Origin: Methanobacteriota archaeon
GTDB taxonomy: Archaea; Thermoplasmatota; Poseidoniia; Poseidoniales; Poseidoniaceae
Assembly (NCBI GenBank): GCA_018650165.1
Contig: JABIGM010000050.1
Span: 46,119-110,118 of the forward strand
Length of the DNA stretch: 64,000 nt
Direction: 5' to 3'
The translations under genes and the position numbers were made by a program. Positions 3,084-35,506 of the stretch are shown in pieces (the first letter of the stretch is position 1; the number at the start of each line of letters is the position of its first letter). The notes beneath the pieces are model-generated. The model was not told the origin of the DNA. It worked only from the letters and a program-made list of their open reading frames with translations, and did no database searches.

Positions 3084-3095
3084 AATATTCCCTCC

Positions 3096-4418
3096 TCAGA
3101 ATCCTCTTGCACCTGCTAGTGCGGTAGATAGAAGCATATCTGGCTCCCAATCCATGATGTTGACTCCCAAACTGCTCAGTTCGCTAATCAGTACATCTCT
3201 TTCGGTTTTCAGAACTTCATAACCAGTACGGTCGAGTCTCTTAGCATCGAATTCAAATTCGAGGCTTGAAGGTGAAAGTACAGTAACATCGAAATTACGA
3301 GCTCTGAAATCACGTAGTGCACTAATAATCGTAGGATCATCTTCTAAATTTGAAAGTACGATAATTGGACTTCCCTTATTGATATGCGGTAATATTCGGT
3401 TAACTACCACTTGAAGTGGTACGTTTCCACGAGCCATTGCGCCTGCTAATTTAGTTAGTATGACGTACAATTGTTTCTTACCAGTGTCACGGTCTACACT
3501 TACAACTTCATCACCGTAGGTGATAAGTCCAACCGAATCTCGTCGACCAAGGAAAAACTTAGCAAGACTAGCGGCCGCCCTTGTCGAGTAAACCAATGCA
3601 TTTCGTGAAACAGGACCTGTTTCGGAAACTGCACGTGAATCCACAATCAGAATGATATCACTGACTGCATCTCTCTCACGCTCATTGACCATTAATTTAC
3701 CACTACGGGCATATGCAGACCAGTTAATCGCTCGGAATGAATCTCCTTCGAAATACTCACGGAGTGAGTAAAACTCGGAACCAGGTCCTGGTTGACGGAT
3801 ATTTACCGCACCTGTGAAAATTTTCGGAACACGTGATTTGACGAATGTATCTTTCAATTCTTCCATCTTCGGGAACACAAGGAAGTCGTTGTAGACATGC
3901 AGCTCTTTTTCCTTGTGGAATAACCCGAATGGGTCTTGAACACGGACAGCAACCGGGCCAAGGCTGTAGAATCCTCTCAAGGGGCATTCGACTGTGTATT
4001 CGATGAAGGTTTCACGGCGTGGACCAAGTTCCATTAAGATGTAATTTGCACCATCTTTGATGCGCATTACTTCAGGTACTCGGTCACGTACTTCCAGAAT
4101 CTTTCCTAGTGCAGAGTGATTTTGCATACGCAAAGTCACTCCAACTTCACCATCTTCGAAAATTCGGGCACTAGAGAGTTTGCGCATTGCAGAGACATTA
4201 GAAAGAGCAACTCCTTCTTCACCTGTCCATTCATCAGCACGACGACCACTTGCAGATACATCTGCGTGGCTGCCGAATAATGCGGCCCATGTAAGGAATA
4301 CAAAGATTACCACAGCAATGGTAACCAGTTGAGAATTCCTCAAGGTTAGACCTAGCAAATACATTGCTACTGCCAGGGATCCCAGCATTGCACTCTTACG
4401 ACTCCACATGCTACGCAC
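3096..4418 (-). CDS. DUF58 family protein (VWA-like MoxR partner) with an N-terminal TM hairpin.
   Basis: Two N-terminal TM helices, then the DUF58 signature region 'YSLREYFEGDSFRAINWSAYARSGKLMVNERE'. It lies immediately downstream of MoxR. Confidence 0.7.
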   Translation of the reverse strand: MRSMWSRKSAMLGSLAVAMYLLGLTLRNSQLVTIAVVIFVFLTWAALFGSHADVSASGRRADEWTGEEGVALSNVSAMRKLSSARIFEDGEVGVTLRMQNHSALGKILEVRDRVPEVMRIKDGANYILMELGPRRETFIEYTVECPLRGFYSLGPVAVRVQDPFGLFHKEKELHVYNDFLVFPKMEELKDTFVKSRVPKIFTGAVNIRQPGPGSEFYSLREYFEGDSFRAINWSAYARSGKLMVNERERDAVSDIILIVDSRAVSETGPVSRNALVYSTRAAASLAKFFLGRRDSVGLITYGDEVVSVDRDTGKKQLYVILTKLAGAMARGNVPLQVVVNRILPHINKGSPIIVLSNLEDDPTIISALRDFRARNFDVTVLSPSSLEFEFDAKRLDRTGYEVLKTERDVLISELSSLGVNIMDWEPDMLLSTALAGARGF

Positions 4419-4445
4419 TCTCTCTATTTCCGATCATTAATTTAA

Positions 4446-5621
4446 TCAAACGGTTGGTACAGGTACTTCGCGTAAGATTGCTTGGATAACTTCACCAGGT
4501 TCTAGACCTTTGATCTGGTGTTCAGGCTTCAAGATAATTCTGTGTGCTAGAGCTAATTCTGCAACGGTCTTAATGTCATCAGGAGTGATGAAATCGCGAC
4601 CACGTAGAGCTGCTGCTGCGCGTGAAGTCTTCAGGAGAGCCTGAGAACCACGAGGTGAAGCGCCGACTAGAACACGAGGATCTTCACGGGTTCTTGTTAC
4701 AACTTCAACCATGTACATGCGTAGAGCTGGGTCGACATAAATGTCTTCACATGCTTGTTGCATAGCGATAACACGCTGTGGGTCTGTGATAACATCGACA
4801 TCGACGGCATCCTTTCCACGTTCAATACGACGGCGCAGAATTTCATCTTCATCTGCACGATCTGGGTAACCTACGCTCATCTTGAACAGGAAACGGTCAA
4901 GTTGTGCTTCAGGTAGTGGGTATGTTCCTTCTTGTTCGACAGGGTTTTGTGTTGCCATAACAATAAATGGCGCTGGGAGTTTGTGAGTGACTGTACCGAT
5001 AGTCACCTGCTTCTCTTGCATAGCCTCAAGCAAAGCAGCTTGAGTCTTTGGAGGAGCACGGTTAATCTCGTCAGCTAGTAGCAGGTTACAAAATAGTGGA
5101 CCTGGTTTGAAGGTAAATTCTCCCTTCTTAGCATCGTAGATGTTTGTACCGGTAATGTCTGCTGGTAGCAAATCCGGAGTAAACTGCACACGCTTGAAGT
5201 CACAACCTAACGCATCTGCGAAAGTATTGGTCATCAAAGTCTTAGCAAGTCCTGGATAATCTTCGAACAGTAGGTTACCGTTTGATAGAATATTGATCAG
5301 AACGTTGTCAATAACGTGTGCCTTACCGATAATTACCTTCTGGACTTCGGCGCTAATCGCTGACGATATCGCTCCGACGGCCTGAAGACGTTCACGGACC
5401 TCTGGGCTACTCTGGTGTTTAGGCTGTGCCTGTGCCGGGGCTGGTGCTGCGGGTGCAGGTGCTGCAGGGGCTGGGGCCGGTGCTGCTACTGGCATAGGTG
5501 CCGGTGCTGCAGGTGCAGGCGCTGGTGGCGCTGCTGGGGCCGGGGCCGGTGCTGGCGGTGCTGCTGGTGCAGGTGGTGCCGGCGCAGGGGGGGCTGCGGG
5601 TGGTGGTGGTGCTGGCTGCAT
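4446..5621 (-). CDS. MoxR-family AAA+ ATPase with a 65-aa N-terminal Pro/Ala low-complexity extension.
   Basis: 'VLLEDYPGLAKT', 'VQFTPDLLPADITG', 'LLADEINRAPPKTQAALLEAMQE', 'VMATQNP.E.EGTYPLPEAQLDRF' are the MoxR Walker A/B, sensor and arginine-finger regions. The N-terminus is (PA)n. Confidence 0.85.
   Translation of the reverse strand: MQPAPPPPAAPPAPAPPAPAAPPAPAPAPAAPPAPAPAAPAPMPVAAPAPAPAAPAPAAPAPAQAQPKHQSSPEVRERLQAVGAISSAISAEVQKVIIGKAHVIDNVLINILSNGNLLFEDYPGLAKTLMTNTFADALGCDFKRVQFTPDLLPADITGTNIYDAKKGEFTFKPGPLFCNLLLADEINRAPPKTQAALLEAMQEKQVTIGTVTHKLPAPFIVMATQNPVEQEGTYPLPEAQLDRFLFKMSVGYPDRADEDEILRRRIERGKDAVDVDVITDPQRVIAMQQACEDIYVDPALRMYMVEVVTRTREDPRVLVGASPRGSQALLKTSRAAAALRGRDFITPDDIKTVAELALAHRIILKPEHQIKGLEPGEVIQAILREVPVPTV
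5425..5620 (-). repeat. In-frame (PA)n / APAPAA coding low-complexity repeat at the MoxR N-terminus.
   Basis: DNA is GC-rich 'gctggggccggtgctgc' iterations. It translates to about 65 residues of Pro/Ala only. Confidence 0.8.
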
Positions 5622-5641
5622 GTCTTTTTTACCTCCTTAGG

Positions 5642-7222
5642 TTATTTCCCCCAAAGTCGAATTTGCTGCAAAATTTGCCTCAGTTCTTCGTTGGAGTATG
5701 AACGCTGTTGTGAATACAACAACTCAATCAGGCGTGGGTCCTTTACCATGGACTGGATTTCACCTGGTGTTTTCCTGGCCATTTCATCACGGGTCAGGTC
5801 GCTAACTTGGCGCACTTTGGCCATCATGGCCTCCCGCACGCGGGTAAGATATAGATTCGGATCTACTTTGTTTGGTCTTTCCCTGAATCTCGTAAGGTCG
5901 AATACATGGCGCCAATTTTCTTTCTCTGGAACCACCATAATTGCAATAGATAGCAAAGCCATCAGATTCAGTACAATCAACCACTTCAACAAGGTATCAC
6001 TTGTTAACATTACAATTGCACCCATCGCCTCTGTGAATGGAGATGAAATCGCTGAAGTTATGTGGCGTGATTCATCGAATACAATGTAGAAGTTTTTATT
6101 TTCACGAGTTATTGTCAACGAAATTTCGTCATTCTCGTGCTCCATCATATCCCTGATTAGTGTGACAAAATAATCTTTATTGCCTTTCCAATCAGTTTCG
6201 CTCCCATCTTGGGAAGAAAGTAATGATTCCCAGCATGACCTTCCGTCATAGTGGATTGAATCACATTGTTGCTTACCAGTAACTTCTGCATCTGCAATAT
6301 CCCAAAGATGGTTAGCAAATACGGAGTGGTCGGAAATGAATACAATACTTCCAGTTACATCGACTTCTCCTTCTCGAATACCCTTGACTTGGTCAATAGT
6401 TTCGATTCCAGGATAATCCATACGTACAATTAGCCCGGTGTTATTACCTCCGAGAATCGGATTGTCTTTGTCGTTTGCGTCCATGTTTTCTCTAGCTATG
6501 AAAGCAGAGCCTGAAGCATGAGCCAGTACCTTCACATTACGTGAACTATCTTCATTATCTAGAACCTGAATCGCAGTAGGCCTGTGGAAGAGAATCGGTA
6601 GCGCACAATCATCGAATTCACCTGCGTTTGAAAGGTTAGAATCGCTGCAGTACGGTCGCCTCTCATACTGGTCTTCCCATACTTTGTTTACTCCAGCAAC
6701 TGCCCATAACTTTCGTGCATCTGGCGCCTCTTGTACACCAGTTTGGCTAGCTACCTCGTAGTATCTGTTTGGATCGACGACTGGGGCATCAAAAAATTTC
6801 ACATCGAACTTATCTGCAACTGTTTGAGCATTGGTAGAGTTTGATGCGATTATGACCTTGCCACCGTTCTGAGTGACGAAATCATAAATTGCATCAGCTT
6901 CAGAATTATCAAATGGTTTCTCAGGTGCTGCAATGATTAGCATTGTGCGGTGAGGTTCCCTCCAATCATTCACCAACATTGGAGTAGACATTGTATTTGC
7001 AATAACATAATCCAGTCCGTCATCACCAAGATCTCCTCTCATGGTAGATATCTGCTGATACTGAAGATTAGTATCCTCACTATCTGTAACATAAGCAGAA
7101 TACACGGTCTCCTTACCAGAAGCTGTTACAATGATGACAGTTGTTGAAAGTAGCATGGCTGCGACGAAGCCAACTAGTAACCAAGTTTCTAACTTGACCC
7201 CTGTTGTCTCTTCATCAGCCAT
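5642..7222 (-). CDS. DUF4350-like bitopic membrane protein, the first gene of the MoxR operon.
   Basis: N-terminal TM, a roughly 400-aa extracytoplasmic domain, a C-terminal TM and a cytoplasmic tail. Its position and architecture match the DUF4350 partner in the conserved DUF4350-MoxR-DUF58-membrane gene order. The family assignment rests on context only. Confidence 0.4.
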   Translation of the reverse strand: MADEETTGVKLETWLLVGFVAAMLLSTTVIIVTASGKETVYSAYVTDSEDTNLQYQQISTMRGDLGDDGLDYVIANTMSTPMLVNDWREPHRTMLIIAAPEKPFDNSEADAIYDFVTQNGGKVIIASNSTNAQTVADKFDVKFFDAPVVDPNRYYEVASQTGVQEAPDARKLWAVAGVNKVWEDQYERRPYCSDSNLSNAGEFDDCALPILFHRPTAIQVLDNEDSSRNVKVLAHASGSAFIARENMDANDKDNPILGGNNTGLIVRMDYPGIETIDQVKGIREGEVDVTGSIVFISDHSVFANHLWDIADAEVTGKQQCDSIHYDGRSCWESLLSSQDGSETDWKGNKDYFVTLIRDMMEHENDEISLTITRENKNFYIVFDESRHITSAISSPFTEAMGAIVMLTSDTLLKWLIVLNLMALLSIAIMVVPEKENWRHVFDLTRFRERPNKVDPNLYLTRVREAMMAKVRQVSDLTRDEMARKTPGEIQSMVKDPRLIELLYSQQRSYSNEELRQILQQIRLWGK

Positions 7223-7376
7223 TTAGTGTCACCTCGAATTCGGCTACGAGCAAACGCAACATCTTTCGCAACTTCGGACCATTCATATAGATTCTCGTGG
7301 CTTGCTCAATAATAATATTGGAATATCATTCCCGATGAAGCGGTATCATTCCCTATTTGAGCACAAATAACGCCGA

Positions 7377-8303
7377 TTAACGACGAATTGTGGCAGCAAA
7401 CATTACCGTTAAAATACAAATAAAGGCTGAAATTGCAGGAAGTGAATTTTCTTTAACTTCAAAATCAGAAGAGTCCGTACTATCATTTCCTTCATCTTCT
7501 TCTTTGACCAAAACGTCTGGCGCATCAACATTAAATTCCAATTCACCCTCATACGAGATGCCGTTTCCTTCACTGGTAATAGTTACAATAAATTTGCAGG
7601 TTTTATCTGGGTGGCTAGAAGGAGCAAGTAATTTGACTGTACCTGCTTTGCTAACAGATATCGCTTCGCCTGTGTTCAAGGCTGTTATTTGTTCAAAGTT
7701 CATCTGAGGGCAACCTTTGAACGAAAGCCCTATTTTCGTTAAAGCATCGTCTACATTACCAATATTTAGTACACGGATTGTTACTTCTTCATGGGTACCA
7801 GATTTTATTTCAGGCCCTTTACCATTAACCACTGGTTCAAATTCAATTTCAAATCCAAAGACTGATGAAAATTGAACTTGCTTTTCTATTTCTTTTTCAC
7901 CAATACTCTGATCTCCAAAGAGAAGGGTCGCTTTCAAAGTAACAATATCGTAATGAGACTGCCTCGCATCTATCAATTCGCCATTACTATTCAATCCACT
8001 TCCTGAGATCATTAATTCAAATGTCTCATTCGAGTTTGCCGAAACCGATACTTTCCCAGGGTCATCGACAATGAATAAATCATTGGTCTCTATTTCAAAA
8101 TCAAGGTCTGCAGGCACAGGCCGAGAATTGTCCACCCAGAATTTGATAACTAATTCAAAATTATAATTTGAATCTAATTCCATAATCATAGGTTCTTTAT
8201 CGCTATCCCATCCAATTTCCCAATCAGGGACACCTACATCTTGGGCACTTACAACAGGGCTGAGTATTGCCAATAGCAAAATAGATGAGATGATTTTCTT
8301 CAT
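7377..8303 (-). CDS. Secreted protein with a cleavable signal peptide and a C-terminal hydrophobic anchor plus RR. The likely start is 'MKKIISSILLLAILSPVVSA'; the track ORF extends to 8333.
   Basis: Signal peptide, then a beta-rich soluble domain, an acidic S/T/D linker, and 'LPAISAFICILTVMFAATIRR' at the C-terminus. It starts 4 nt after the CoxM stop. Confidence 0.5.
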   Translation of the reverse strand: MKKIISSILLLAILSPVVSAQDVGVPDWEIGWDSDKEPMIMELDSNYNFELVIKFWVDNSRPVPADLDFEIETNDLFIVDDPGKVSVSANSNETFELMISGSGLNSNGELIDARQSHYDIVTLKATLLFGDQSIGEKEIEKQVQFSSVFGFEIEFEPVVNGKGPEIKSGTHEEVTIRVLNIGNVDDALTKIGLSFKGCPQMNFEQITALNTGEAISVSKAGTVKLLAPSSHPDKTCKFIVTITSEGNGISYEGELEFNVDAPDVLVKEEDEGNDSTDSSDFEVKENSLPAISAFICILTVMFAATIRR

Positions 8304-8307
8304 TTTA

Positions 8308-9252
8308 TCACTCCTCACATGCTCTTTTGACAAGTATTTTGATCATATTTCTTCGATACCTTGGCGGTAAAGCAGTATTGTTAACCGGTTTCGTTGAATC
8401 GTAGATTGCATTACAAATTGCTTTAACATCGCCATTAGAGATTGCTACTTCCTCATCATGTCTGCGAGGAATACTTTCCAAAGCAGTTGTTGCAACTCTT
8501 AGTGTACTTCTGTCACCCTTCTTCCATGCGGCTGCTGCGCCAGCTTCTGGAAAATCCCATGACTCTCTAACTCGTAACTTGCGATAGGCTCCAATCCAGT
8601 CCTCTACATCATCGGGTAGAGTTACTTTCAGCATAAATTCACCAGGCTGCAGAATATTTCGCGTCATTCCATCTAGTTGATAGAACTCATTTACCAATAC
8701 ATTTCGAGGGCCATTTGGGCCAATCAGATGTGCTGTAGCATTCAAAACCATCAACGTTGGAGCGATATCTCCTTGGTAAGTAGCGACACACAACTCATTT
8801 TGGTTAGGAATCACTCGGCAATCAGAGCCTGTTCCACAATCACACTTGTGGCACCAATCAATACTACTTCGCCACTCTTCTGTTTGATTATACCAGAAAC
8901 ATCGAGTATCCAAGCAAAGATTTCCGCCAAGAGTGGCGTTTCTTCGAATTAGCGAGGAAGCCACTTTACTAGCGGCTTCCGCTACAAGTGGGTGAGCATT
9001 GCCACCTTCTGCGAGGTCATGTAATCGTGCCATACAGCCTATTTCGGTCAGAGAAATAGAATCGATTCCTGCGATTTTTGCGAGTGAAATCACATGAGGT
9101 TTAGTATTAATGTGCCATTTGTAATTTGGAATTAAATCGGTGCCTCCTGCGACCCAATCAAATTCTTCACCTGCTTCTAACAGTCCAGCGGCTATTACAC
9201 AGGCATCTTCCACAGATTGAGGATGGTGTAATTCAAACGGTGGCATCAGCAT
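8308..9252 (-). CDS. Molybdenum hydroxylase FAD-binding (medium, CoxM/XdhB-like) subunit with a Cys-rich insertion.
   Basis: 'FELHHPQSVEDA...AGGTDLIP' is the FAD-binding PCMH motif, and 'ATLGGNL' also matches. A 45-aa insert carries 7 Cys: 'CLDTRCFWYNQTEEWRSSIDWCHKCDCGTGSDCRVIPNQNELC'. Confidence 0.8.
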   Translation of the reverse strand: MLMPPFELHHPQSVEDACVIAAGLLEAGEEFDWVAGGTDLIPNYKWHINTKPHVISLAKIAGIDSISLTEIGCMARLHDLAEGGNAHPLVAEAASKVASSLIRRNATLGGNLCLDTRCFWYNQTEEWRSSIDWCHKCDCGTGSDCRVIPNQNELCVATYQGDIAPTLMVLNATAHLIGPNGPRNVLVNEFYQLDGMTRNILQPGEFMLKVTLPDDVEDWIGAYRKLRVRESWDFPEAGAAAAWKKGDRSTLRVATTALESIPRRHDEEVAISNGDVKAICNAIYDSTKPVNNTALPPRYRRNMIKILVKRACEE

Positions 9253-12053
9253 TACTTACCATCCTCCATTTTTCTTTGCTCGATTTTAGTCCAAGCACTA
9301 CCTGCAAGGCCAAGCCCCTCTAATTGTTCAGAGGTAGGCCTCACTGCGATTTTCCAATCTCCATCTTGGTCCTCGGGGGGAACGGTTGGGTCAAATCCAA
9401 ATAATACTCCATTGATGTAAGGGTCGGTATCTTCTGAACGCTGACGGCGACTATCTCTTCCTCCGTGTTGTGAAGAACGCTGAACAATTTTTTGCTGTAA
9501 CTCAGAGAAATCTAAACGTGGCGTAGGTAGGTCTTGGGCCTCAGCAATGTCTTCTCTCTTCATTTTCTTTGCAATTGCTGCCCAAACCTTGTCTGGTGTC
9601 AAAGGTAAATCATTGATTCTGATTCCAATTGCATCGTAAACTGCATTTACCACTGCAGGGAGAATTGGTAGAAGTGGGCCTTCTCCTGCTTCTTTAGCCC
9701 CGAATGGCCCTTCTGGGTCACATGATTCAATTATTATTGGAGTTACATTTGGCATTTCGTGAACACTTGGGATCTTGTAATCAAGTAAATTTGGATTCTG
9801 TAGATGACCGGTTCTCCCATACACCATTTGTTCTGAAAGCACCTGACCCAGACCCATATGGCAAGAACCGATGATTTGCCCTTCTACTGCGAGTGGATTC
9901 AGTGCTTTACCACAATCATGAGCGGCCCAAACATCTGTACATTTGATGAGTCCTGTTTCAACATCAACATCAACTTCGGCAACATAGGCTGAAAACGAAT
10001 ATGCAGGAGCAAGGCCCGCTGCTGCACCTTTGTGAACTCCTCCCATCGGCGGTGTTCTGTACGCACCACTAGCAATTAGCGCACCTTTGTCCTCTTGTGA
10101 TTTATGCAATGCCTCGAGATAAGAAACTCCAATCGCGGGGTCTCTTTTACTGTAAATTCTCCTGTCGTTCAGTATCAAATATTCCGCCGGCATATCCAAT
10201 ATGCCACTCGCCGCATCCACCAATTGCTCACGAATTTCGAGTGCTGCACTGATGGCAGCATTCGCATTCATGAATGTGACTCGAGATGAATATGAGCCTA
10301 AATCAACTGGACTAGTATCGCTTTCATGGGAGCGAACATGTATCATTTCCAATGGGAGTGCTAACACTTCTGCAACCACTTGGGCTATAGCAGTAGTAGA
10401 CCCTTGTCCAATATCTGCAGCACCGGTATGAACTGTAACGCCTCCATCCATATCAATCTGGATATGTACGGTCGCATGAGGGAATTTATTTGGATCCCAA
10501 TGAATAGGAAGTCCAGACCCTGATATGAAGAAACCACATCCGATTCCGATTCCCTTTCCTAAAGGTAATTTCCTGAACTTAGAATCCCACTGGCTACCTT
10601 CGCGCACTCGCTCTAATGCTTGCCGCATACCATTCGATGTAATTCTGAATCCAGTAATTGTTTTTGAATGTGGAGGTAATAAATTTGCTAACCGTAAATC
10701 GATAGGATCTACTTGTAATTTTTCAGCCAAATCATCCATACCTACTTCGATTGCACATCTAGTGTTCACAGCACCATGGCCGCGCATTGCTCCACTAGCC
10801 GGTTTGTTTGTCCAAACACGAGCACCGGTATAATGGAAGGAACCTAACTCGTATGGAGCGGTTGCTAAAACACCATTGTAGTAAGAAGTGACGTGGCCAA
10901 AAGACGCAAATCCGCCTCCGTCAATCAAAGCATCAATCTCAAATCCGGAAATTCTCGCATCCTCATCTGCAAACATTTGTACTTCGATGTGAGAGGGATG
11001 GCGTCCACGATTTACCCAAAAGACCTCTTCTCTGTCAAAAGTAATTCTAACTGGGCGCCCCGCTTTTCTGGCTAAAATCGCCGCACACATTTCATGCGGG
11101 AAAGGATCTGACTTTCCACCAAATCCACCGCCAACAAATGTTCGTATCACGTTGACCTGGTGCATTGGGACATCTAGAACAGTCGCTAGAGCTCTGTGTG
11201 CATAGTGCGGTACTTGCTGGGGGGTGTACAGTTGTAGACGCCCGTTTGAATCCCAATGAGCAACAACAGCATGGGGTTCGGTGAAGCCATGATTGACACC
11301 CATGAATTTCCATTTGCCATGGTGTGTTGCTCTGGCTTGTTCTAATTTGGAACGGTCACCAAACTCTTGGAAAACTCTTTTTTGAACATTGGTGGAGCCA
11401 ATGTGATATTGCCCGCGCCAATGGATTGGATCATCAACGTCCAATAATCCCTTTTTGGGGTCATGAACCGCATCTAGAACTTCATATTCCACTTCGATTA
11501 ATGCCGCCGCTTCACGAGCAGTTGGTTCGTCAATTGCAGCAACACAAGCCACAAGGTCCCCTACATGCCTGACTTTTTCAACAGCCATTGCGTGTTCATC
11601 TTTTGTCACCGGTAGTACACCAAAGCGCTGCGGTGCATCAGCACCTGTAGACACCGCTAAAACGCCCGGTAGTGCTTCGGCTTTGGAAGTATCAATACTC
11701 TTAACCTTAGCATAATGATGAGGTGAACGAACAATTCTTCCAATTATTTCATTTGGCAATCGCACATCATCACCATACCATGCCTGGCCCGTAACTTTGG
11801 CATTACCATCAACTAAAGGAGTTCTTTTTCCAACAGATGTTCCAGTCCTGTATTTATCATGAAGATGTTGACCTGCCGGCTGTGATTCATTTCCGCCTTC
11901 AACTTCTGGGATGAAATCCATGTCTCTATCGGCCATTTCGGGCCTTGAACCACCTGAACCGGGAGGATTAAATTTAATTTTACCTGCAACACGCTTTCCA
12001 TCAACACGAACATCAGTGTTGCTTCCAGGTTGTTGAACATAGCCATCAGTCAT
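9252..12053 (-). CDS. Molybdenum hydroxylase large (CoxL/XdhA-like) molybdopterin-binding subunit with N- and C-terminal extensions.
   Basis: a/b hammerhead region 'GKRTPLVDGNAKVTGQAWYGDD', 'GGGFGGKSD', 'GQGSTTAIAQVVAEVL', 'NPLAVEGQIIGSCHMGLGQVL'. There is about 120 aa of extra C-terminal sequence. Confidence 0.85.
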   Translation of the reverse strand: MTDGYVQQPGSNTDVRVDGKRVAGKIKFNPPGSGGSRPEMADRDMDFIPEVEGGNESQPAGQHLHDKYRTGTSVGKRTPLVDGNAKVTGQAWYGDDVRLPNEIIGRIVRSPHHYAKVKSIDTSKAEALPGVLAVSTGADAPQRFGVLPVTKDEHAMAVEKVRHVGDLVACVAAIDEPTAREAAALIEVEYEVLDAVHDPKKGLLDVDDPIHWRGQYHIGSTNVQKRVFQEFGDRSKLEQARATHHGKWKFMGVNHGFTEPHAVVAHWDSNGRLQLYTPQQVPHYAHRALATVLDVPMHQVNVIRTFVGGGFGGKSDPFPHEMCAAILARKAGRPVRITFDREEVFWVNRGRHPSHIEVQMFADEDARISGFEIDALIDGGGFASFGHVTSYYNGVLATAPYELGSFHYTGARVWTNKPASGAMRGHGAVNTRCAIEVGMDDLAEKLQVDPIDLRLANLLPPHSKTITGFRITSNGMRQALERVREGSQWDSKFRKLPLGKGIGIGCGFFISGSGLPIHWDPNKFPHATVHIQIDMDGGVTVHTGAADIGQGSTTAIAQVVAEVLALPLEMIHVRSHESDTSPVDLGSYSSRVTFMNANAAISAALEIREQLVDAASGILDMPAEYLILNDRRIYSKRDPAIGVSYLEALHKSQEDKGALIASGAYRTPPMGGVHKGAAAGLAPAYSFSAYVAEVDVDVETGLIKCTDVWAAHDCGKALNPLAVEGQIIGSCHMGLGQVLSEQMVYGRTGHLQNPNLLDYKIPSVHEMPNVTPIIIESCDPEGPFGAKEAGEGPLLPILPAVVNAVYDAIGIRINDLPLTPDKVWAAIAKKMKREDIAEAQDLPTPRLDFSELQQKIVQRSSQHGGRDSRRQRSEDTDPYINGVLFGFDPTVPPEDQDGDWKIAVRPTSEQLEGLGLAGSAWTKIEQRKMEDGK

Positions 12054-12070
12054 TGTAACACCTCATTTGA

Positions 12071-12658
12071 CTAATTTGGACCTGAAGGATGGGGGTCAGA
12101 GTGGGCTGAACTCGCAGGCTTTGCCGGTGAAGCATCTCCTCTATGGATCTCAGCCGCTGCTTGGATTGATTGAATTATTTGCTGATATCCTGTACAGCGA
12201 CAAAGATTACCTTCGATAGCAGTTGATATCTCTGCATCGGTAGGATTAGGATTCTTATCGAGCAGTGCTTGAGAGGAAATTAAGAAACCAGGCGTACAAA
12301 AGCCACATTGGGAACCTCCATGCTCTGCAAAACATTGCTGAATCGGTGCGAGGTGAGCGCCATCAGCAAGCCCTTCAACTGTCGTGATTGTGCTGCCTTG
12401 TACATCTTGAGCCATGGTAAGGCAAGATAAACGTGGTTGGCCATCTACCATCACTGCGCAGCAACCACATGTCCCCATGTCACAACCGCGCTTCACTCCG
12501 AGGCATCCAACTTTATCTCTAAGGACATCTAGTAAGACTGCATTAGAAGGGGCTAACACCTCTTGAGGTTGCCCATTAACCTCTGAGTTCCAAACTTTAG
12601 TATGTGCCGCTGGAATCATAGAAACATGCTCATCACCTACCATCTGAGACACCAACAA
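12071..12658 (-). CDS. Molybdenum hydroxylase [2Fe-2S] small (CoxS-like) subunit. The start is probably the internal Met at about 12619.
   Basis: 'CDMGTCGCCAVMVDGQPRLSCLTMA' is the plant-type 2Fe-2S site. 'GSQCGFCTPGFLIS...LCRCTGYQQI' is the second 2Fe-2S site. Confidence 0.85.
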   Translation of the reverse strand: MLVSQMVGDEHVSMIPAAHTKVWNSEVNGQPQEVLAPSNAVLLDVLRDKVGCLGVKRGCDMGTCGCCAVMVDGQPRLSCLTMAQDVQGSTITTVEGLADGAHLAPIQQCFAEHGGSQCGFCTPGFLISSQALLDKNPNPTDAEISTAIEGNLCRCTGYQQIIQSIQAAAEIHRGDASPAKPASSAHSDPHPSGPN

Positions 12659-12738: not shown

Positions 12739-14214
12739 TTATTTTCTTGATGAAACTACCGTGTAATCTTCTGACCCGGCCTTTGGATTATCCCAATCAT
12801 CATCTCCCGGCAATACTAATCCATCTCCAATTGCTACCAAATCAAATGCTAGTTTAATTTGGTCGCTACAAAGTTTACTCCAATCGAAGGATGGGTCTCT
12901 CCATTTCATCCACAATCGCATTCTTCTCCACGCGATTGTTCCTCTAGAATAGAGTTTCATCTGTAATTTACCAGCCATAGGCATCCACCATAGCATCAAC
13001 GGGAATACCGCATAAGCGGGAAGTGAAAACAGAAATTCGAGAGTTACACTATATTCTGCAAACTGGGCAATAGGACTTGTATCTGAAAGTAAAGCCCAGG
13101 TGAATACACCTGCTGCAAGCATCCACCAGATTGGATAAACTACAAATGCAGTATAGAGTTTCAAAGCACCTCGGCTAGATTCTTTGAATCTTGGCCCAAA
13201 TATTCTATCACCTGAAAATACCATTAGGTAGGGTGGAATTGAACCAATTATTGCACTCAAGGTAACAAACCCAACCATAAATGACCATGCAAATAGCCAC
13301 CACCAAATCGATATCAGAAATCCTTTACTCGTTACAGATTTTGGTCGAGAATCAACATGTCTCGGTTTGAGATTATAGGAATCAAGTAGTTCGACGTGCT
13401 CTCTAGTGCGCTGTTCTAACGCCTTACTTTTTGCAGCATCGTTTAGTGCCAGCCATTCCCAGGCTGCTCTGACTCTTCTTGCACCAAGTATGTCTTCTCC
13501 ATAACTAGAGCGCTGTTTTAGATCGGGGGTTTTACGCAAGCGTTCAGCGCGAATAATTGAGCGAGCATTCCAAATTAATTCCCTATCATTCCAGTTCTCT
13601 CTTGAAAGTGATGCACGCGATATCTCACCTGAAATTATTTCGCTCAATCCTTCTACTGAGCCACTAATTTCTATAGGCCTTTCAACTGTCAGAGCGACCC
13701 GTTCACGGAAGTAAGACTTGCGGCTATAATGAATCCCGACTGGAATTACTACAGGCTTTTCATCACCAGCTAATTCATTGGCGCGTAATGCAATTTTCGC
13801 TGCACAATCTCGAATCGCTTTTGCACGGGGAAGGTCGTGAGATTCGCCCTCTGGAAATACAACTACACTTGACCCTGCAGCGATTTGTGATGCGATTACT
13901 TCTAATTCCTCGTCATCATCTACCACTCCGTCGAATTTGACCTGGTCACCTCTTAGTAGCCCCTTGGTCAACATTTTATCAAACAAGCCACCTGGGTGCC
14001 AAGATACGATAATTGAGCCTCTGTCTTTTGAAATGTTATCTGCATCTATTATGCTTATTTCACGAAACCACGTGGCCATCAAAACTCGACTAAACCAGTT
14101 TTGCAGCCCCATGATTGGTCCTGTGCGGCTGAGGCTTTCACTTCTCGCCCGTTTTAGCAATAAATAAGAGGGTTCAAACAGTATTGCCGGTTCGAGCGAA
14201 TCAGAGTACAACAA
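12739..14214 (-). CDS. Membrane-bound acyltransferase of the PlsC/GPAT family: an N-terminal acyltransferase domain and a C-terminal multi-TM domain.
   Basis: 'SWHPGGLFD' is HX4-5D-like and 'VVVFPEGESH' is FPEG-like motif III. The C-terminal 180 aa are hydrophobic. Confidence 0.5.
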   Translation of the reverse strand: MLYSDSLEPAILFEPSYLLLKRARSESLSRTGPIMGLQNWFSRVLMATWFREISIIDADNISKDRGSIIVSWHPGGLFDKMLTKGLLRGDQVKFDGVVDDDEELEVIASQIAAGSSVVVFPEGESHDLPRAKAIRDCAAKIALRANELAGDEKPVVIPVGIHYSRKSYFRERVALTVERPIEISGSVEGLSEIISGEISRASLSRENWNDRELIWNARSIIRAERLRKTPDLKQRSSYGEDILGARRVRAAWEWLALNDAAKSKALEQRTREHVELLDSYNLKPRHVDSRPKSVTSKGFLISIWWWLFAWSFMVGFVTLSAIIGSIPPYLMVFSGDRIFGPRFKESSRGALKLYTAFVVYPIWWMLAAGVFTWALLSDTSPIAQFAEYSVTLEFLFSLPAYAVFPLMLWWMPMAGKLQMKLYSRGTIAWRRMRLWMKWRDPSFDWSKLCSDQIKLAFDLVAIGDGLVLPGDDDWDNPKAGSEDYTVVSSRK

Positions 14215-16245: not shown

Positions 16246-19200
16246 ATGAGAAATATGTCTAATCTACCATCTCGGCCTCAAAGGCCGACAGGAAAACAGA
16301 ATCTTTCTGCACGAATTGGAAACCTTTCTGCAAATGCAATCCTTGCACCTCCGGTGACTATGGGGACTGTTGGACAAGCACCAGTAAATGCGGTAAACTC
16401 TGGAATGCAAAAATTTGCTCAATTGATTCTATTTGCAATTGCAATGATTGCGATATGGGCAGGACTTCTCTCCATTGCCTTTGGTGGCGATGAACAAACC
16501 CAAATGAATTTCCTAGTCCTTGGAATTGGAGGAATTTTATCAGGTGTTTTGGCGATTAGCCTAGTCGAGTTTCAAGTTAGGAAGGGGGGAAATGAATTAC
16601 AAAATGTCCACGATTATATGCTTGGAGTAGCATTTTTCTTCTTAGCAGTGGGCACTCTATGGGGCACTAGATGGCTTATTGGGTTCTTAGCGGGGCAAGA
16701 GGTACATTGGCTTATTCCCGAGGGAACAGACCCCTTGGATAGTGGCTGGATTCCATCTGCAAATGCAATATATTTGCAAATGGCTGCGACTTTAGCACTT
16801 GCTTTGGCACAGACATTCTACCTCATGCGACTGAAAGGAGTAACTACCTTTGGATGGTCAGTAACAACATTTACTCCTCTTGTAGTAGCCCTTATTGGTT
16901 CAAGCATCTGGATGGAGTGGTCAGATAACATAGTATCATGGGAGTTAGGTATCGCAATGATTTCATTAGCCTCGCTTTCGATGTGGCTATCTCTACGTGC
17001 AAATAGTGGAATAATATTCTCGGTAGTAGCTGTAACCTCAGGCCTATTACCGATGCTCTACGAATATAATAACGAAGATGTAGGGTCGGGCGGAGCTCTC
17101 TCGCTTTTGGTATTCATCATTGCAGTACAGGGAATTCTAGCAGCAGATAGAAGGCTCCGGCAAGATTTGATGCAATGGACTTCAGCTTTATTAGTTGGAG
17201 AAGTTGTACTAGCAATGATACTTGCACGAGATGCAGATTTCGAATTGATTCTTGGACCAATTCGTCAATCGGAACTTGGATCTCTTGAACCATATCTCAC
17301 ATTACAAGTTGGTTTATGGATGACAGTACTAGTTGCATATTTCCCTGCAACTCTCAAGCGGAGAATTCCTTACATGCCAATAGGCCTAGCAGGCTCTCTA
17401 TTCATAATCAGTTCATCCGCAGGCTTAATCCCATGGATTGTAACTTTGGTAATGCTACCGTACCTATTGGTGATATCCAAGGTCACAAGACAGTGGGTGG
17501 CCAATTGTACAATGATCGCTACTGGATTCTCCTTCTTCATACAATCACACTGGATGGGAGGATTTGAGCCAGGTTGGTTGGAAGCAACAATTCTGATTGT
17601 AGTCTTGGCTAGTGGGGAAGTTGGAAGACAAAAAGGCCACCTCTCCGACTGGGCACACTTCGTCACTTTGGGACTTTTAGTAATTTCAAAATCCGTTCTA
17701 TTTGGAGACGACCCGTATGTACCTTGGGCGATATTCATCTACGCTGTTGTTTCATCATACATGATGATGGTCAAATCCGAAGCAAATGGAAGCAAGCAAG
17801 ATGCTTTCGAAGCTTCATCCGCTACTGCTGGCTCGATGGTCATTGCTGTAATCCTCTCTTTATTCGATAGACTGGAAGTCCCACTCCCCTCAAATATTGC
17901 TGAAAATCTAGAAGGTTTCAATGTCACATTAGCATTAGTTGGTTTGATTGTATATGCATCGATGCGTAAATTCAGAACCATTGAATTAGACCTAGGTGTG
18001 ATGTTTAATTGGGCTGAAGGAAAAAGAAAATCAATGATGCCGGTATTTGATACTACCACTAATTCATGGGTGGTTGATAATGGAGGCGCATCTAGTGAGC
18101 CTGCTGATTATTCATGGGGGCCACTGGGGCGAATGAGTCTTATTGGACCAATGATTCTCTTCACGGTAGCACTTACTGCAGTAGGGCCTACTAACTTAGC
18201 AGAAAATATCATCTGGACCCTCCTATTGATCATTCCAATTGGAATAATTGTAAAGGAAGTTCTAGACGAAGAGCGGGCTTCTTCAACGGGAAGAATGATT
18301 GCCACATTCACAATGATTGCTGTGGCCGCACCTATGGCCTTAAGTTTGAACTTGGCAAGAGGAGAAACTGACGGTTTGATTTATTCTACTATTCTCTTTG
18401 ATTTGATGCTACTTGCTGGGCCATTAGGAGTATCGGTTTTGCTATCTAAAAAGGGTCTCAATGATGATTCGCTTAATCGTACAGCGGACATTGCCACTTT
18501 GATGGGGCTATTGGTCCTAGGATTATTCGATACCAGTGGTGGATTATTGTTCCTAACTATGTACATACTAGTATTCAGTAGAGCTGTGAAACATAGAGTT
18601 AATCTTGTATTATGCATAGCACCAATTGCTATACTATTATTCGGATTTGATTCATATGGAGATAGATTCGTTTCAGATGGTGCAATAGTTGGAGATATCT
18701 TATCCAAATTAGATATTATTTCTTACGACCCAAGTGAAATAACAATACTTGGGTTGAGTAGATTCTCATTCTTTGTTATGGCAACTACAAGTCTAATCAT
18801 ATTGGCACGAGGTGTGTTAGACCGTCAATATGGACTTGATGCAGGTGCCATTGAAGCGCCGATGACAGTACCTGCATTCTGGCTTACTCTTGGAATGTTT
18901 GGTGTATTACCCGAAGCGAGTTGGTTACTGTTAACAATGACAATATTAGTTACAATATACGCTTGGCTTGTTGGAAGAATTGAGATTATTCCATGGATAC
19001 CAACCTTGGCGTTAATTTCATTCCTTATTGGATTCACAAATGATTCTAATTTCAGTCATTTCGATGGAGGAGATGTTTTTGCTCACAGTTTATTGGGAAC
19101 TGGTTTATTCGCATTAACCCTCAATCAATTAAGTTCCAAAGGCTGGCTTTACAAATATGCTGATGAAGCGATTGATGATCAACTTGCCACGGCTACAATT

Positions 19201-21577: not shown

Positions 21578-22111
21578 ATGGCGGGAGAAATGGTTTGGAT
21601 TGATCTCGAAATGACGGGATTAAATCTTGATAGTGAATCTATTATTGAAATTGCCACAATTGTCACTGATGGTGAATTGAATATTACTGCCATGGGCCCA
21701 AATCTGGCAATCAAAGTAAGCGAAGAGTTGCTGGGAAATATGGATGAGTGGAACACAACTCATCACACAGCCTCTGGACTTGTTGATAGAATAAGGAGCG
21801 AAGGTGTTAGTTTAGAAGAAGCGATTAAGCAAACTTGTGCCTTTCTAAAAGAAAATATAGATACAGGTGCTTCTCCACTCTGTGGCAATTCAATTCATAC
21901 TGATAGAGCATTTTTGGCAAAAGAAATGCCTGAAATTCTAGACCTGTTACACTATCGTATTGTCGATGTATCTTCAATCAAAGAGTTATCCAATAGATGG
22001 TATCCAAATAATCCAAGATATGACAAAAAAGAAGCACACCGTGCTTTGGATGATATTATCGAATCTATCGAAGAACTTCGCCACTACAGGGCTACTTTAT
22101 TCAGAGATTAA
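21578..22111 (+). CDS. orn: Oligoribonuclease (DEDDh 3'-5' exonuclease).
   Basis: 'MVWIDLEMTGL' is Exo I with the DxE. 'GNSIHTDRAFL' and 'HRALDDIIESI' are Exo II/III with His and Asp. 177 aa is the typical Orn size. Confidence 0.8.
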   Translation: MAGEMVWIDLEMTGLNLDSESIIEIATIVTDGELNITAMGPNLAIKVSEELLGNMDEWNTTHHTASGLVDRIRSEGVSLEEAIKQTCAFLKENIDTGASPLCGNSIHTDRAFLAKEMPEILDLLHYRIVDVSSIKELSNRWYPNNPRYDKKEAHRALDDIIESIEELRHYRATLFRD

Positions 22112-35474: not shown

Positions 35475-35506
35475 ATGTTATCCTCCTTTCATGGGAAAAG
35501 GTACTC

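Follow-up and report, generated by a model that had tools for sequence, protein, structure and literature searches.

What kind of molybdenum enzyme is encoded by a three-gene operon of Marine Group II (MGII) archaea, and in which direction do electrons run through it? This question is raised by the window analyzed here, a 64-kb stretch of DNA from a planktonic MGII archaeon (Ca. Poseidoniales). It contains three co-directional minus-strand genes encoding the Fe-S, Mo, and FAD subunits of a xanthine-oxidase-family enzyme, as indicated by ORF calls and Pfam. [quoted passage not shown] Public automated annotations vary among 4-HBCR, xanthine dehydrogenase family, and CutA or YagS. An earlier note had described an atypical enzyme of the CoxSLM type; its ORFs, cysteine-rich loop, and terminal extensions stand, while its premise that, among well-described family members, HcrB alone has such a loop does not.

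Operon organization and subunit structure

The operon was found in at least 218 species genomes, covering both MGII families (MGIIa and MGIIb). Its features are as follows:

[quoted passage not shown]
9252–12053, minus strand: L, α (large) molybdopterin subunit, 933 aa
8308–9252, minus strand: M, β (medium) FAD subunit, 314 aa
11829–12053, minus strand: N-terminal extension of L (residues 1–75), MGII-specific, with conserved motifs
9255–9575, minus strand: C-terminal extension of L (residues 827–933), MGII-specific, predicted to be ordered
8788–8916, minus strand: Cys loop of M (residues 113–155, ~43 aa), putative [4Fe-4S] site from the HcrB alignment

L and M overlap at a TAATG junction, and the ATG of L is preceded, at a distance of 7 nt, by a GAGGTG motif. 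Pfam assigns Fer2_2, Fer2, and Fer2_3 to S, Ald_Xan_dh_C, MoCoBD_1, and MoCoBD_2 to L, and FAD_binding_5 to M, with E-values of 1e-27 to 1e-71; these predicted domain assignments are far beyond chance. Together with the ORF positions, the domain sets bear out the S, L, and M identities given in the earlier note. The S subunit best matches the NCBIfam model of HcrC (TIGR03193), with 187.7 bits against a cutoff of 257.8. Among 72 MGII sequences of S, nine cysteines are kept at 99–100%, including those in the segments GCDMGTCGCC and CGFCTPG...CRCTG, which we take to resemble plant-type and Fer2_2 motifs. In the same sequences, residues before ~23 are weakly conserved, and the true start is probably Met6 (12643) or Met14 (12619) rather than the TTG. 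S ends in a C-terminal tail of ~25 aa.

The best PDB matches of L and M are HcrA (1rm6_A, E = 6e-186, 43% identity) and HcrB (1rm6_B, E = 1.6e-45, 39% identity), far ahead of CO dehydrogenase (CODH), QOR, PaoABC, and xanthine dehydrogenase (XDH) as solved homologs. The structure models of both subunits also match chains A and B of 1rm6 best; for the AF2 model of L (pTM 0.83), Foldseek placed 1rm6_A at the top with a TM value of 0.92. Homologs cover L only over about residues 73–827, flanked by the two extensions. These had been noted from the sequence with lengths of about 75 and 120 aa, and they prove real, the N-terminal one measuring ~72–75 aa and the C-terminal one ~106 aa. Alignments of the orthologs begin at residue 1, and the motifs GYxQQP, GKxxFxxPGSGG, IPExxGG, QPxG, and HxHD of the N-terminal extension are kept across MGIIa and MGIIb, with a third-position to first/second-position substitution ratio of 3.2–3.6. 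This extension has no Pfam match at E ≤ 10, is absent from HcrA and the nearest bacterial relatives, and shows low AF2 pLDDT values (33–66). The C-terminal extension likewise has no Pfam match, and no solved homolog spans it, because only ~770 columns align in the structure search. Its pLDDT values are about 87–97 over residues 827–920, with a long helix at 852–871 in the model, and this arm of roughly 100 aa is probably folded. The motifs Y-x-NG-x-x-FG-x-DP and LAGxAW are conserved in both MGII families; the substitution ratio of 3.3 over residues 871–933 indicates clear purifying selection, and that of 1.8 over residues 827–870 is more relaxed. Both extensions are evidently genuine, MGII-specific, and under purifying selection. 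Subunit clamping, partner docking, and cluster shielding are candidate roles for the two arms.

The loop of M contains seven cysteines (113, 118, 134, 137, 139, 145, and 155), as the earlier note had counted, and six of them are invariant or nearly so in 81 MGII sequences; C137 occurs in only 25%. C118, C134, C145, and C155 align with C122, C138, C146, and C155 of HcrB, whose four ligand cysteines were reportedly identified by Unciuleac et al. 2004. All four are invariant in MGII, in authentic HcrB, and in the neighboring bacterial relatives, and the loop is homologous to the [4Fe-4S] insertion of HcrB. In addition, C113 aligns with HcrB C117, and the invariant C139 is specific to MGII. The loop is found in relatives of the P0121, P0123, and P0124 types and is missing from P0128 and P0147, which are basal types; the alignments indicate that it is common to a whole subclade of uncharacterized bacterial relatives. 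The archaeal CutB (4zoh_B) aligned solely to M residues 162–311, outside the loop. The alignments of PaoB (5g5g_B) and of the Methylobacillus aldehyde oxidase (5y6q_B) extend across the loop, and according to the literature the FAD subunit of PaoABC carries a four-Cys [4Fe-4S] motif. The HcrB-only premise is therefore outdated, and the loop is to be read as an extra electron port that alone is no proof of reverse electron flow, to which it had been tied: in PaoABC, it accompanies oxidative aldehyde chemistry. The pLDDT of the loop is below 50, so the AF2 model is uninformative on its geometry.

Relation to HcrABC and gene neighborhood

By these sequence criteria, the MGII enzyme is not an ortholog of HcrABC, because all three subunits fall below the NCBIfam equivalog cutoffs, L forms a separate branch, and the pocket motifs differ. 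L scores 800.5 bits against TIGR03194 (cutoff 994.55), where MGII sequences reach 800–815 bits, their neighbors 833–933 bits, and bona fide HcrA 1292–1342 bits; M scores 219.5 bits against TIGR03195 (cutoff 404.55). In bootstrapped NJ trees, MGII monophyly and the HcrA clade were each supported at 100%, the grouping of MGII with P0121 at 85.5%, that of MGII with P0121, P0122, and P0123 at 96%, and an exclusive MGII plus HcrA group at 0%. MGII thus branches with uncharacterized bacterial proteins, apart from HcrA, and L lies outside every characterized clade, the outcome of the phylogeny that the earlier note had proposed as a check. Among 314 core positions that are conserved within MGII and within HcrA alike, 109 differ between the two. 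The differing positions include pocket segments (GGGFGGKSDPF against GGGFGARTExL, LAPAYSF against ATMGFCY, and GFRITSNG against YAQKVMSYG), and at these segments MGII agrees with its neighbors.

Three further genes of the window are relevant to the enzyme:

22101–22904, minus strand: XdhC/CoxI-family Moco maturation and insertion chaperone (Pfam XdhC_CoxI, XdhC_C)
22901–23476, minus strand: MobA-like NTP transferase (Pfam NTP_transf_3)
23448–24596, minus strand: acyl-CoA dehydrogenase with all three Pfam ACAD domains, overlapping the MobA-like gene

The XdhC product, whose XdhC-type NCBIfam matches are below cutoff, is a probable accessory factor of the S-L-M enzyme. The gene overlapping it by 4 nt (60 bits against TIGR03310 MocA, below cutoff) probably encodes a MocA-type molybdenum cofactor cytidylyltransferase, the maker of the MCD cofactor. 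The acyl-CoA dehydrogenase best matches the NCBIfam models of acryloyl-CoA reductase and cyclohexane-1-carbonyl-CoA dehydrogenase without reaching either cutoff, and an association with the enzyme is possible. Both MGII families keep the maturation genes in synteny with the operon. In MGIIa loci L024 and L025, the whole ACAD-MocA-XdhC string is kept upstream, with XdhC ~4 kb from S-L-M; the string is not kept in MGIIb locus L084, where XdhC lies directly upstream with one HTH_10 gene between. The MocA-like gene is also syntenic in MGIIb and in the bacterial relatives L083, L086, L089, and L091, and in L083 the XdhC gene comes after hcrCAB.

Several of the closest relatives are placed in acyl-CoA, BCR-type, and ferredoxin-reducing gene clusters. 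The P0123 locus contains a CoA ligase fused to a BcrAD/BadFG ATPase, a thiolase, an SDR, an HGD-D gene, and a BcrAD gene; P0122 has two HGD-D genes, MocA, XdhC, and an SDR; P0125 has two BcrAD genes, an ACAD, and a 2-oxoacid:ferredoxin oxidoreductase; and P0128 has MocA, XdhC, a thiolase, two enoyl-CoA hydratases, and an SDR.

Probable function and alternative readings

On balance, we favor a ferredoxin-coupled, 4-HBCR-like enzyme acting on a probably aromatic acyl-CoA substrate. The redox wire runs, by homology, between the Mo-pterin of α, the two [2Fe-2S] clusters of γ, the FAD of β, and an extra [4Fe-4S] cluster held by the four-Cys loop of β. As in 4-HBCR, a low-potential one-electron carrier, most probably ferredoxin, would dock at this last cluster. 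The molybdopterin cytosine dinucleotide cofactor would be sulfurated, and the MocA-like and XdhC genes close by would provide for its maturation. The acyl-CoA and ferredoxin assignments were made because of the P0122, P0123, P0125, and P0128 loci and the MGIIa ACAD-MocA-XdhC string; they suggest an aromatic or otherwise activated acyl-CoA thioester as substrate and the Mo center as the site of oxygen-atom transfer. The chances for and against an acyl-CoA substrate are about evenly balanced, and reductive dehydroxylation, as in 4-HBCR, and oxidative hydroxylation feeding ferredoxin are about equally probable. Several observations count against the favored reading: within the 64-kb window, there is no gene for a CoA ligase, a BCR-type enzyme, a 2-oxoacid:ferredoxin oxidoreductase, or a ferredoxin; acyl-CoA neighbors are absent from the P0121 and P0124 loci; and the [4Fe-4S] cluster of PaoABC is compatible with ordinary oxidative aldehyde chemistry. 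Moreover, MGII count as aerobic photoheterotrophs (PMC9723583), and 4-HBCR is oxygen-sensitive (PMC12771579). Transcript coverage of the enzyme's orthologs from MGIIb is also low in coastal metatranscriptomes.

An oxidative hydroxylase or dehydrogenase resembling PaoABC, with a substrate other than a CoA ester (an aldehyde or N-heterocycle, for example), is the less probable but still credible case in which electrons would flow from Mo by way of the Fe-S clusters and FAD and exit at the [4Fe-4S] cluster to ferredoxin or a different acceptor. Oxidative enzymes make up most of the family (PMC10420851, PMC12771579), L retains the catalytic Glu of hydroxylases together with their Gln and Arg motifs, and the aerobic host, the comparable cluster of PaoABC-type enzymes, and the P0121 and P0124 loci fit this chemistry. 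However, PaoC and PaoB score 217 and 77 bits against 623 and 159 bits for HcrA and HcrB, the loop spacing is HcrB-like and unlike that of PaoB, the N-terminus of S lacks a twin-arginine motif on inspection, and several close relatives reside in the clusters described above. A bona fide 4-HBCR, in which reduced ferredoxin would feed [4Fe-4S], FAD, [2Fe-2S], and finally Mo for removal of the para-hydroxyl of 4-hydroxybenzoyl-CoA to give benzoyl-CoA, is slightly more doubtful still. The best matches of all three subunits in models and structures, the hcrCAB gene order with XdhC and MocA accessories, and the conserved loop cysteines are as expected for it, and JGI, KEGG, and some NCBI pipelines already use the name; a protein identical to M is labeled 4-HBCR beta in public data (P0404). 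Against it stand the subunit scores, the position outside the HcrA clade, the replaced pocket motifs, the aerobic host, and the 64-kb window, which contains no benzoyl-CoA-consuming genes. The literature search also found no paper on 4-HBCR in MGII, and, among its matches on benzoyl-CoA plus MGII, those consulted report no such pathway there.

Two other readings carry far less weight. Aerobic CODH of the CoxSLM type shares the three-subunit architecture, and CODH structures are the second-best matches; yet this identity is close to negligible, given that L scores 288.8 against TIGR02416 (cutoff 991), is 26% identical to CoxL, and aligns GAMRGHG with the AYRCSFR loop of CoxL, whose absence had already led the earlier note to doubt a CODH. 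Furthermore, the Cys loop is missing from CoxM, whose alignment to M is broken at residue 113. XDH for purine catabolism is also very improbable. In L, Ser follows GGGFGGK, at the position taken by the substrate-binding Glu in XDH (bovine Glu802); the XdhA, pucD, and xdhB scores are 524, 404, and 278 against cutoffs of 780, 784, and 850, and identity to XDH is only 23–24%, 4-HBCR being structurally nearest. This reading was suggested by automated annotation, in which xdhC and yagS were named in MGIIb MAGs (PMC9723583). According to the supplement of that study, they correspond to XdhC and M of the cluster described here, and KEGG assigns L to hcrA there. In line with purine use, MGIIb strongly transcribes a xanthine/uracil permease.

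Architecture and distribution of the operon

The operon consists of three ORFs on the minus strand, located where the earlier note had placed them and encoding the γ (S), α (L), and β (M) subunits:

12071–12658, minus: S, γ Fe-S subunit, 195 aa counted from TTG; Pfam Fer2/Fer2_2
9252–12053, minus: L, α Mo subunit, 933 aa; Pfam Ald_Xan_dh_C, MoCoBD_1, and MoCoBD_2
8308–9252, minus: M, β FAD subunit, 314 aa; Pfam FAD_binding_5

These domains were assigned with E-values of 1e-27 to 1e-71. The domain set of the xanthine oxidase family is complete (Fer2/Fer2_2, hammerhead plus MoCoBD_1/2, and FAD_binding_5), and the folds agree. The genes are co-directional and closely spaced in the order hcrC-A-B, which is also that of the hcr genes of Sedimenticola (L083). 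Since the stop codon of L and the start codon of M share a TAATG junction and a GAGGTG motif is located 7 nt upstream of L, the three genes appear to form one translationally coupled unit. A promoter and terminator scan, by a method that does not cover archaeal promoters, found sites no more numerous than in shuffled sequence. In the L subunits of Marine Group II archaea (MGII, Ca. Poseidoniales), the motifs QQVPHY, GAMRGHG, and GAKEAGEG are conserved; the family-wide Gln, the Arg of the RGHG (RGxG) loop, and the catalytic Glu are thus kept, presumably corresponding to bovine Gln767, Arg880, and Glu1261. Homology shows an αβγ architecture with predicted sites for Mo-pterin, two [2Fe-2S] clusters, and FAD, as well as a four-Cys site for a putative additional [4Fe-4S] cluster.

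L aligns with every homologue only over approximately residues 73–827, so that ~75 N-terminal and ~106 C-terminal residues remain unmatched. The terminal extensions described in the earlier note are genuine. MGII orthologue alignments span residue 1 to the end of L in 73 genomes. Motifs common to both MGII families, MGIIa and MGIIb, are GYxQQP, GKxxFxxPGSGG, IPExxGG, QPxG, and HxHD at the N-terminus and PRL...LQ, RD..R, YxNGxxFGxDP, and LAGxAW at the C-terminus. The ratio of change at codon position 3 to the mean of positions 1 and 2 is 3.2–3.6 in the N-terminal extension, 1.8 in residues 827–870, 3.3 in residues 871–933, and 6.3 in the L core. This third-position-dominated change indicates that the extensions are translated and constrained. 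In the AF2 model of L (mean pLDDT 80, pTM 0.83), the N-terminal 70 residues have low confidence, and the C-terminal residues 827–920 are predicted to be ordered (pLDDT 87–97), with a long helix at 852–871. Neither extension is covered by a homologue among solved structures or gave a Pfam match at E ≤ 10. [quoted passage not shown] With these conserved terminal modules, a well-studied enzyme family gains a new structural feature.

The window derives from an MGII archaeon (Poseidoniaceae), and the operon is found across both MGII families. Homologues of L at 70–95% identity are all labelled Poseidoniales or Thalassarchaeaceae and comprise 917–956 aa. When one genome of each GTDB species was scanned, at least 218 stretches proved to encode a relative of M, and all 80 loci kept carry Poseidoniales or generic archaeal MAG labels. 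In one MAG (SI034_bin128), two contigs (L059 and L070) each contain the full operon, with M ~68–69% identical to that of the window; this is either a paralogue pair or the result of mixed strains in the bin. S-L-M is a real, well-conserved, automatically annotated, and uncharacterised enzyme.

The automated names for the operon conflict, comprising 4-HBCR, xanthine dehydrogenase, CutA/CutB, and YagS. An MGII transcriptome study calls these putative xanthine dehydrogenase genes and suggests purine catabolism from the annotation; in its supplement, Prokka names the same MGIIb cluster CutA/CutB and KEGG names it hcrA/yagS, and its transcript coverage is low (PMC9723583). In supplement file 4 (SIMO Bin 19-2, genes 968–974), the chaperone gene is named MnmC or XdhC, L is CutA versus hcrA, and M is CutB versus yagS; the same bin also has a hotdog thioesterase with the KEGG label 4-hydroxybenzoyl-CoA thioesterase (PMC9723583). 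In the literature on MGII, we found nothing specific on 4-HBCR or benzoyl-CoA metabolism and no paper linking MGII with 4-HBCR.

The Cys loop of the FAD subunit

The seven-cysteine string reported in the earlier note is present in M:

8788–8916, minus: Cys loop, M residues 113–155, seven Cys

By far the best match to M among solved structures is HcrB, the FAD subunit of Thauera 4-HBCR (1rm6_B, E = 1.6e-45), which aligned straight through the loop. The earlier note had likened the two loops, and they indeed share four Cys at near-identical spacing. C118, C134, C145, and C155 of M align with C122, C138, C146, and C155 of HcrB, which Unciuleac et al. reportedly described in 2004 as the [4Fe-4S] ligands; this ligand numbering, like the channel residues, is taken from alignment. 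When 24 sequences, comprising MGII M subunits and authentic HcrB, were aligned, C113, C118, C134, C145, and C155 were invariant. The position of C113 is occupied by Met in the nearest bacterial relative (P0121), so that the universally kept set consists of C118, C134, C145, and C155. Compared with HcrB, the MGII loop is 3 aa longer and carries an extra invariant Cys: C139, which sits in the 3-residue MGII-specific insertion, is invariant across 81 MGII sequences, only 25% of which have C137.

The entire insertion of ~40–42 residues is present in HcrB, in MGII, and in relatives of the P0121, P0123, and P0124 types, and is cleanly missing from M of the basal types P0128 and P0147, which comprises 291–292 aa. 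This pattern indicates that the loop is a derived trait of one subclade and not peculiar to this gene. From these alignments, we regard it as a putative [4Fe-4S] site. The AF2 model of M (pLDDT 74.8) also has 1rm6_B as its best match, and the loop itself, with pLDDT < 50, is uninformative on geometry.

The premise that this type of loop is confined to HcrB proved to be outdated. PaoB and the medium subunit of the Methylobacillus aldehyde oxidase align through the region with Cys of their own, and PaoABC is characterised by a four-Cys [4Fe-4S] motif according to the literature. In view of these PaoABC-type loops, the loop indicates an extra electron port and does not by itself imply reversed electron flow. 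The observations in the earlier note (ORFs, Cys string, and extensions) stand, and its interpretation holds in part.

Relationship to 4-HBCR and other family members

Among characterised enzymes, the closest relative is HcrABC of Thauera aromatica (PDB 1RM6/1SB3), which is also the best match in sequence and fold for MGII α and β; the L model matches 1rm6_A with a TM of 0.92. Both enzymes have three subunits, the same gene order, all cofactor-binding domains, and XdhC and MocA-type accessory genes nearby. However, sequence identity is low (43% for L and HcrA, 39% for M and HcrB), HcrA lacks the terminal extensions, and, unlike in HcrABC systems, the host is an aerobic planktonic archaeon in which aromatic-CoA genes are not adjacent.

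Every test argued against orthology with HcrABC, namely equivalog scores, cluster ranking, NJ tree, and pocket residues. All three subunits fall below the NCBIfam equivalog cutoffs (α, TIGR03194, 800.5 vs 994.55; β, TIGR03195, 219.5 vs 404.55; γ, TIGR03193, 187.7 vs 257.8). The calibration on TIGR03194 is bimodal, with 1292–1342 bits for HcrA of Sedimenticola, Paramagnetospirillum, and P0136 and 815–933 bits for MGIIb, P0121, P0124, and P0125. In a search of 1.84 billion cluster representatives, ~15 uncharacterised clusters are nearer to MGII than the HcrA cluster is. The α-subunit phylogeny, calculated by NJ only, places MGII outside the HcrA orthologues.

Bootstrap support in the NJ tree of the α subunit (200 replicates)
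MGII monophyly: 100%
HcrA orthologue clade, MGII outside: 100%
Whole Hcr-like superclade: 100%
MGII + P0121/P0122/P0123: 96%
MGII + P0121: 85.5%
Exclusive MGII + HcrA: 0%

When 108 MGII and 120 HcrA sequences were compared at core positions ≥95% conserved in both, 109 of the 314 co-conserved positions differed in the alignment between the two groups, among them residues in active-site segments. In the active-site segments of the family, MGII resembles its uncharacterised neighbours rather than HcrA.

Pocket segments of the α subunit (MGII and neighbours; HcrA)
GGGFGGKSDPFPHE; GGGFGARTExLhFE
GLAPAYSFSAY; GATMGFCYAAQ
TIsGFRITSNG; TmYAQkVmSYG

The uncharacterised neighbours include the closest relatives of the operon, the bacterial Hcr-like P0121, P0122, P0123, P0124, and P0125, with 45–55% identity in α. 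They have the pocket motifs GGGFGGKS(D/E)PF and PAYSF in common with MGII and are also under the TIGR03194 cutoff, and M of P0121, P0123, and P0124 contains a four-Cys loop. Unlike MGII, they lack C139 as well as the extensions, and several are S-L fusions. In the locus of the closest bacterial relative (L081), a 141-aa ORF without a Pfam match (8050–8475) lies between L and M. It was considered as a free-standing counterpart of the MGII C-terminal tail and rejected, being lipoprotein-like (lipobox LMAAC) and without similarity.

Xanthine dehydrogenase, PaoABC, CutABC, and aerobic CO dehydrogenase are all much more distant from the enzyme than 4-HBCR is, and its scores lie below the cutoffs of their models. 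PaoABC of E. coli (PDB 5G5G) and the Methylobacillus aldehyde oxidase (5Y6Q) are heterotrimeric members of the xanthine oxidase family with an extra four-Cys [4Fe-4S] motif in the FAD subunit, as in MGII. Yet, similarity to PaoABC is far lower (PaoC, 217 bits; PaoB, 77 bits vs 159 for HcrB), PaoC scores 301 against the NF041671 cutoff of 1180, and the Cys spacing of PaoB differs from that of M. PaoABC is periplasmic and its PaoA subunit carries a Tat leader, whereas inspection of the S N-terminus revealed no twin-arginine motif. The urolithin C dehydroxylase of Enterocloster (UcdCFO/Ucdh), the second known reductive dehydroxylase of the family, is XdhC-dependent and also has 4-HBCR as its closest characterised relative, at only ~33% identity, but it has no [4Fe-4S] loop in its FAD subunit and depends on NADH, not ferredoxin (PMC11760930, PMC12771579). 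CutABC, the glyceraldehyde oxidoreductase of Sulfolobus (PDB 4ZOH), is an archaeal heterotrimer of this family whose name Prokka gives to the MGIIb orthologues; its FAD subunit (4zoh_B) matches only M residues 162–311, outside the loop, and the NCBIfam glyceraldehyde dehydrogenase scores are far below cutoff (328 vs 790 and 84 vs 350).

The name xanthine dehydrogenase is contradicted by the scores (XdhA, 524 vs 780; pucD, 404 vs 784; xdhB, 278 vs 850) and by a Ser after GGGFGGK in place of the xanthine-binding Glu, at what we take to be the position of Glu802. Aerobic CO dehydrogenase (CoxSLM) is likewise rejected: TIGR02416 gave 288.8 vs 991, and the (V)AYRCSFR loop, which the earlier note had also failed to see, is replaced by GAMRGHG in the equivalent segment of L.

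Collectively, these comparisons show that the enzyme, as judged from its sequence, belongs to a 4-HBCR-related lineage with a predicted [4Fe-4S] cluster and is neither a xanthine dehydrogenase nor a true 4-HBCR. It is a variant of the 4-HBCR-type branch of the xanthine oxidase family, set apart by lineage-specific terminal modules and an extra conserved Cys. This placement removes a likely mis-annotation and provides a concrete target for expression studies.

Genomic neighbourhood and possible chemistry

The genes considered as accessories or neighbours of the operon are as follows:

31419–32510, minus: ThiF+rhodanese fusion (MoeB/MoeZ/MOCS3-like; also SAMP-activating-E1-like)
22901–23476, minus: MocA-type cytidylyltransferase candidate (NTP_transf_3)
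22101–22904, minus: XdhC-type chaperone
20283–21506, minus: second subtilase-family gene, between XdhC and the operon
16246–20280, plus: 1344-aa protein without a Pfam domain, between XdhC and the operon
2163–8333, minus: co-directional string directly downstream of M, comprising a 318-aa surface/TM-type protein without a Pfam match, a DUF4350-like protein (5642–7222), a MoxR AAA_3 ATPase (4446–5621), a DUF58 protein (3096–4418), and a 306-aa protein

The MocA-like and XdhC genes are part of an overlapping ACAD/MocA-like NTP transferase/XdhC string (24596–22101) on the operon's strand and are syntenic in both MGII families. In other MGIIa genomes, this upstream string is only ~4 kb away from S-L-M; MGIIb has MocA and XdhC directly upstream, with an HTH_10 regulator between them and S. 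The authentic hcr locus (L083; hcrCAB-XdhC-MocA) has the same accessories. The 1344-aa gene and the second subtilase-family gene were not found in the corresponding interval of two compared loci (L024 and L025), nor was the 1344-aa gene in four others (L043, L044, L065, and L080), which suggests a lineage-specific insertion. In MGIIb (L084), the ThiF+rhodanese gene shows synteny with the XdhC/MocA region, and its product could serve in molybdopterin synthase sulfuration. Immediately upstream of S (12739–14214, minus), a 491-aa membrane protein without a Pfam or NCBIfam match contains WHPGGLFD and FPEGESH in its N-terminal part, loosely resembling acyltransferase motifs; it is syntenic in MGIIa and only ~35% conserved.

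Downstream of M, MoxR and DUF58 are 92–93% conserved in MGIIa, and in MGIIb (L084) S-L-M is followed by the same string. The link of the surface protein/DUF4350-MoxR-DUF58 string to the enzyme is an unproven association. MoxR-DUF58 is reminiscent of CoxD/CoxE, the maturation pair of CO dehydrogenase, but the ATPase is of the AAA_3 type (generic MoxR-proper) and the pair is absent from the fetched flanks of bacterial relatives; it is not counted in the system. The MoxR ATPase has a low-complexity N-terminal extension of ~65 aa with Pro/Ala repeats. A 224-aa Cys/Arg/Trp-rich ORF (5415–6089, plus) overlaps this GC-rich repeat from the opposite strand and looks like an antisense artefact rather than a gene.

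Within the 64-kb window, neither a CoA ligase (4-hydroxybenzoate-CoA ligase included) nor a BCR-type gene or other benzoyl-CoA-consuming pathway genes were found, and a six-frame scan revealed no CxxCxxCxxxC[PAGS] ferredoxin motif. The missing ligase does not discriminate against 4-HBCR, because L083 also lacks an adjacent one. The gene contexts of the bacterial relatives are as follows:

P0122: two HGD-D genes, MocA, XdhC, SDR
P0123: CoA ligase fused to a BcrAD/BadFG ATPase, thiolase, SDR, HGD-D, further BadFG ATPase (BcrAD)
P0125 (Ignavibacteriales): two BadFG ATPases, ACAD, 2-oxoacid:ferredoxin oxidoreductase (OFOR)
P0128 (Acidobacteria): MocA, XdhC, thiolase, two enoyl-CoA hydratases, SDR

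Acyl-CoA-type neighbours were not found for P0121 and P0124. The contexts of the closest members outside MGII repeatedly contain acyl-CoA chemistry together with anaerobic aryl- or hydroxyacyl-CoA machinery; HGD-D, BcrAD/BadFG, CoA ligase, thiolase, ACAD, and OFOR of the P0122, P0123, and P0125 loci do not adjoin the MGII operon. By association, these contexts form the main basis for proposing that the lineage acts on an acyl-CoA and has ferredoxin as its partner. The substrate would be an aromatic or activated acyl-CoA, as the ACAD neighbour of the MGII operon also suggests. An electron exchange between the [4Fe-4S] cluster and ferredoxin would be in line with 4-HBCR and with the OFOR of the P0125 locus. 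XdhC and MocA support a sulfurated cofactor, probably MCD with a sulfido ligand.

The direction of electron flow may be read either way. The phylogenetic neighbourhood favours flow into Mo, i.e., dehydroxylation, whereas the aerobic lifestyle of MGII, the absence of an evident benzoyl-CoA sink, and the precedent of PaoABC favour flow out of Mo, i.e., hydroxylation. A more specific reading, which we consider improbable, is that the enzyme, present throughout the MGII order, is a 4-HBCR-type reductive dehydroxylase of archaea (or acts in reverse) adapted to an oxygen-exposed cell, in which the folded C-terminal module, the N-terminal arm, and Cys139 would shield or tune the [4Fe-4S] port. To our knowledge, 4-HBCR-type reductive molybdenum chemistry has so far been found only in anaerobes. 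If such an oxygen-adapted dehydroxylase existed, MGII could process phytoplankton-derived phenolic acyl-CoAs, e.g., hydroxybenzoates and hydroxycinnamates. Among uncultured plankton, MGII belong to the most abundant groups, and we know of no carbon sources for them other than those inferred from genomes. If aromatic acyl-CoAs and ferredoxin are indeed the partners of the enzyme, MGII would be linked to marine phenolic dissolved organic matter and its turnover, and a chemistry thought to be anaerobic would extend into an aerobic archaeon.

Several other genes of the window deserve mention. A riboflavin/FAD cluster (34411–36205, minus) contains riboflavin synthase (Lum_binding), DHBP synthase, and a cytidylyltransferase-like gene that may encode the archaeal FAD synthetase. 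Large proteins are a 1342-aa protein without a recognisable domain (56093–60121, minus) and a 2168-aa FG-GAP-repeat protein (48781–55287, minus), and a further protein has four RanBP-type zinc ribbons (45247–46398, plus). A GpsA-type NAD-dependent glycerol-3-phosphate dehydrogenase with the bacterial C-terminal domain is encoded in this archaeon at 38254–39252 (plus), fitting the bacterial-type lipid backbone genes reported for MGII.
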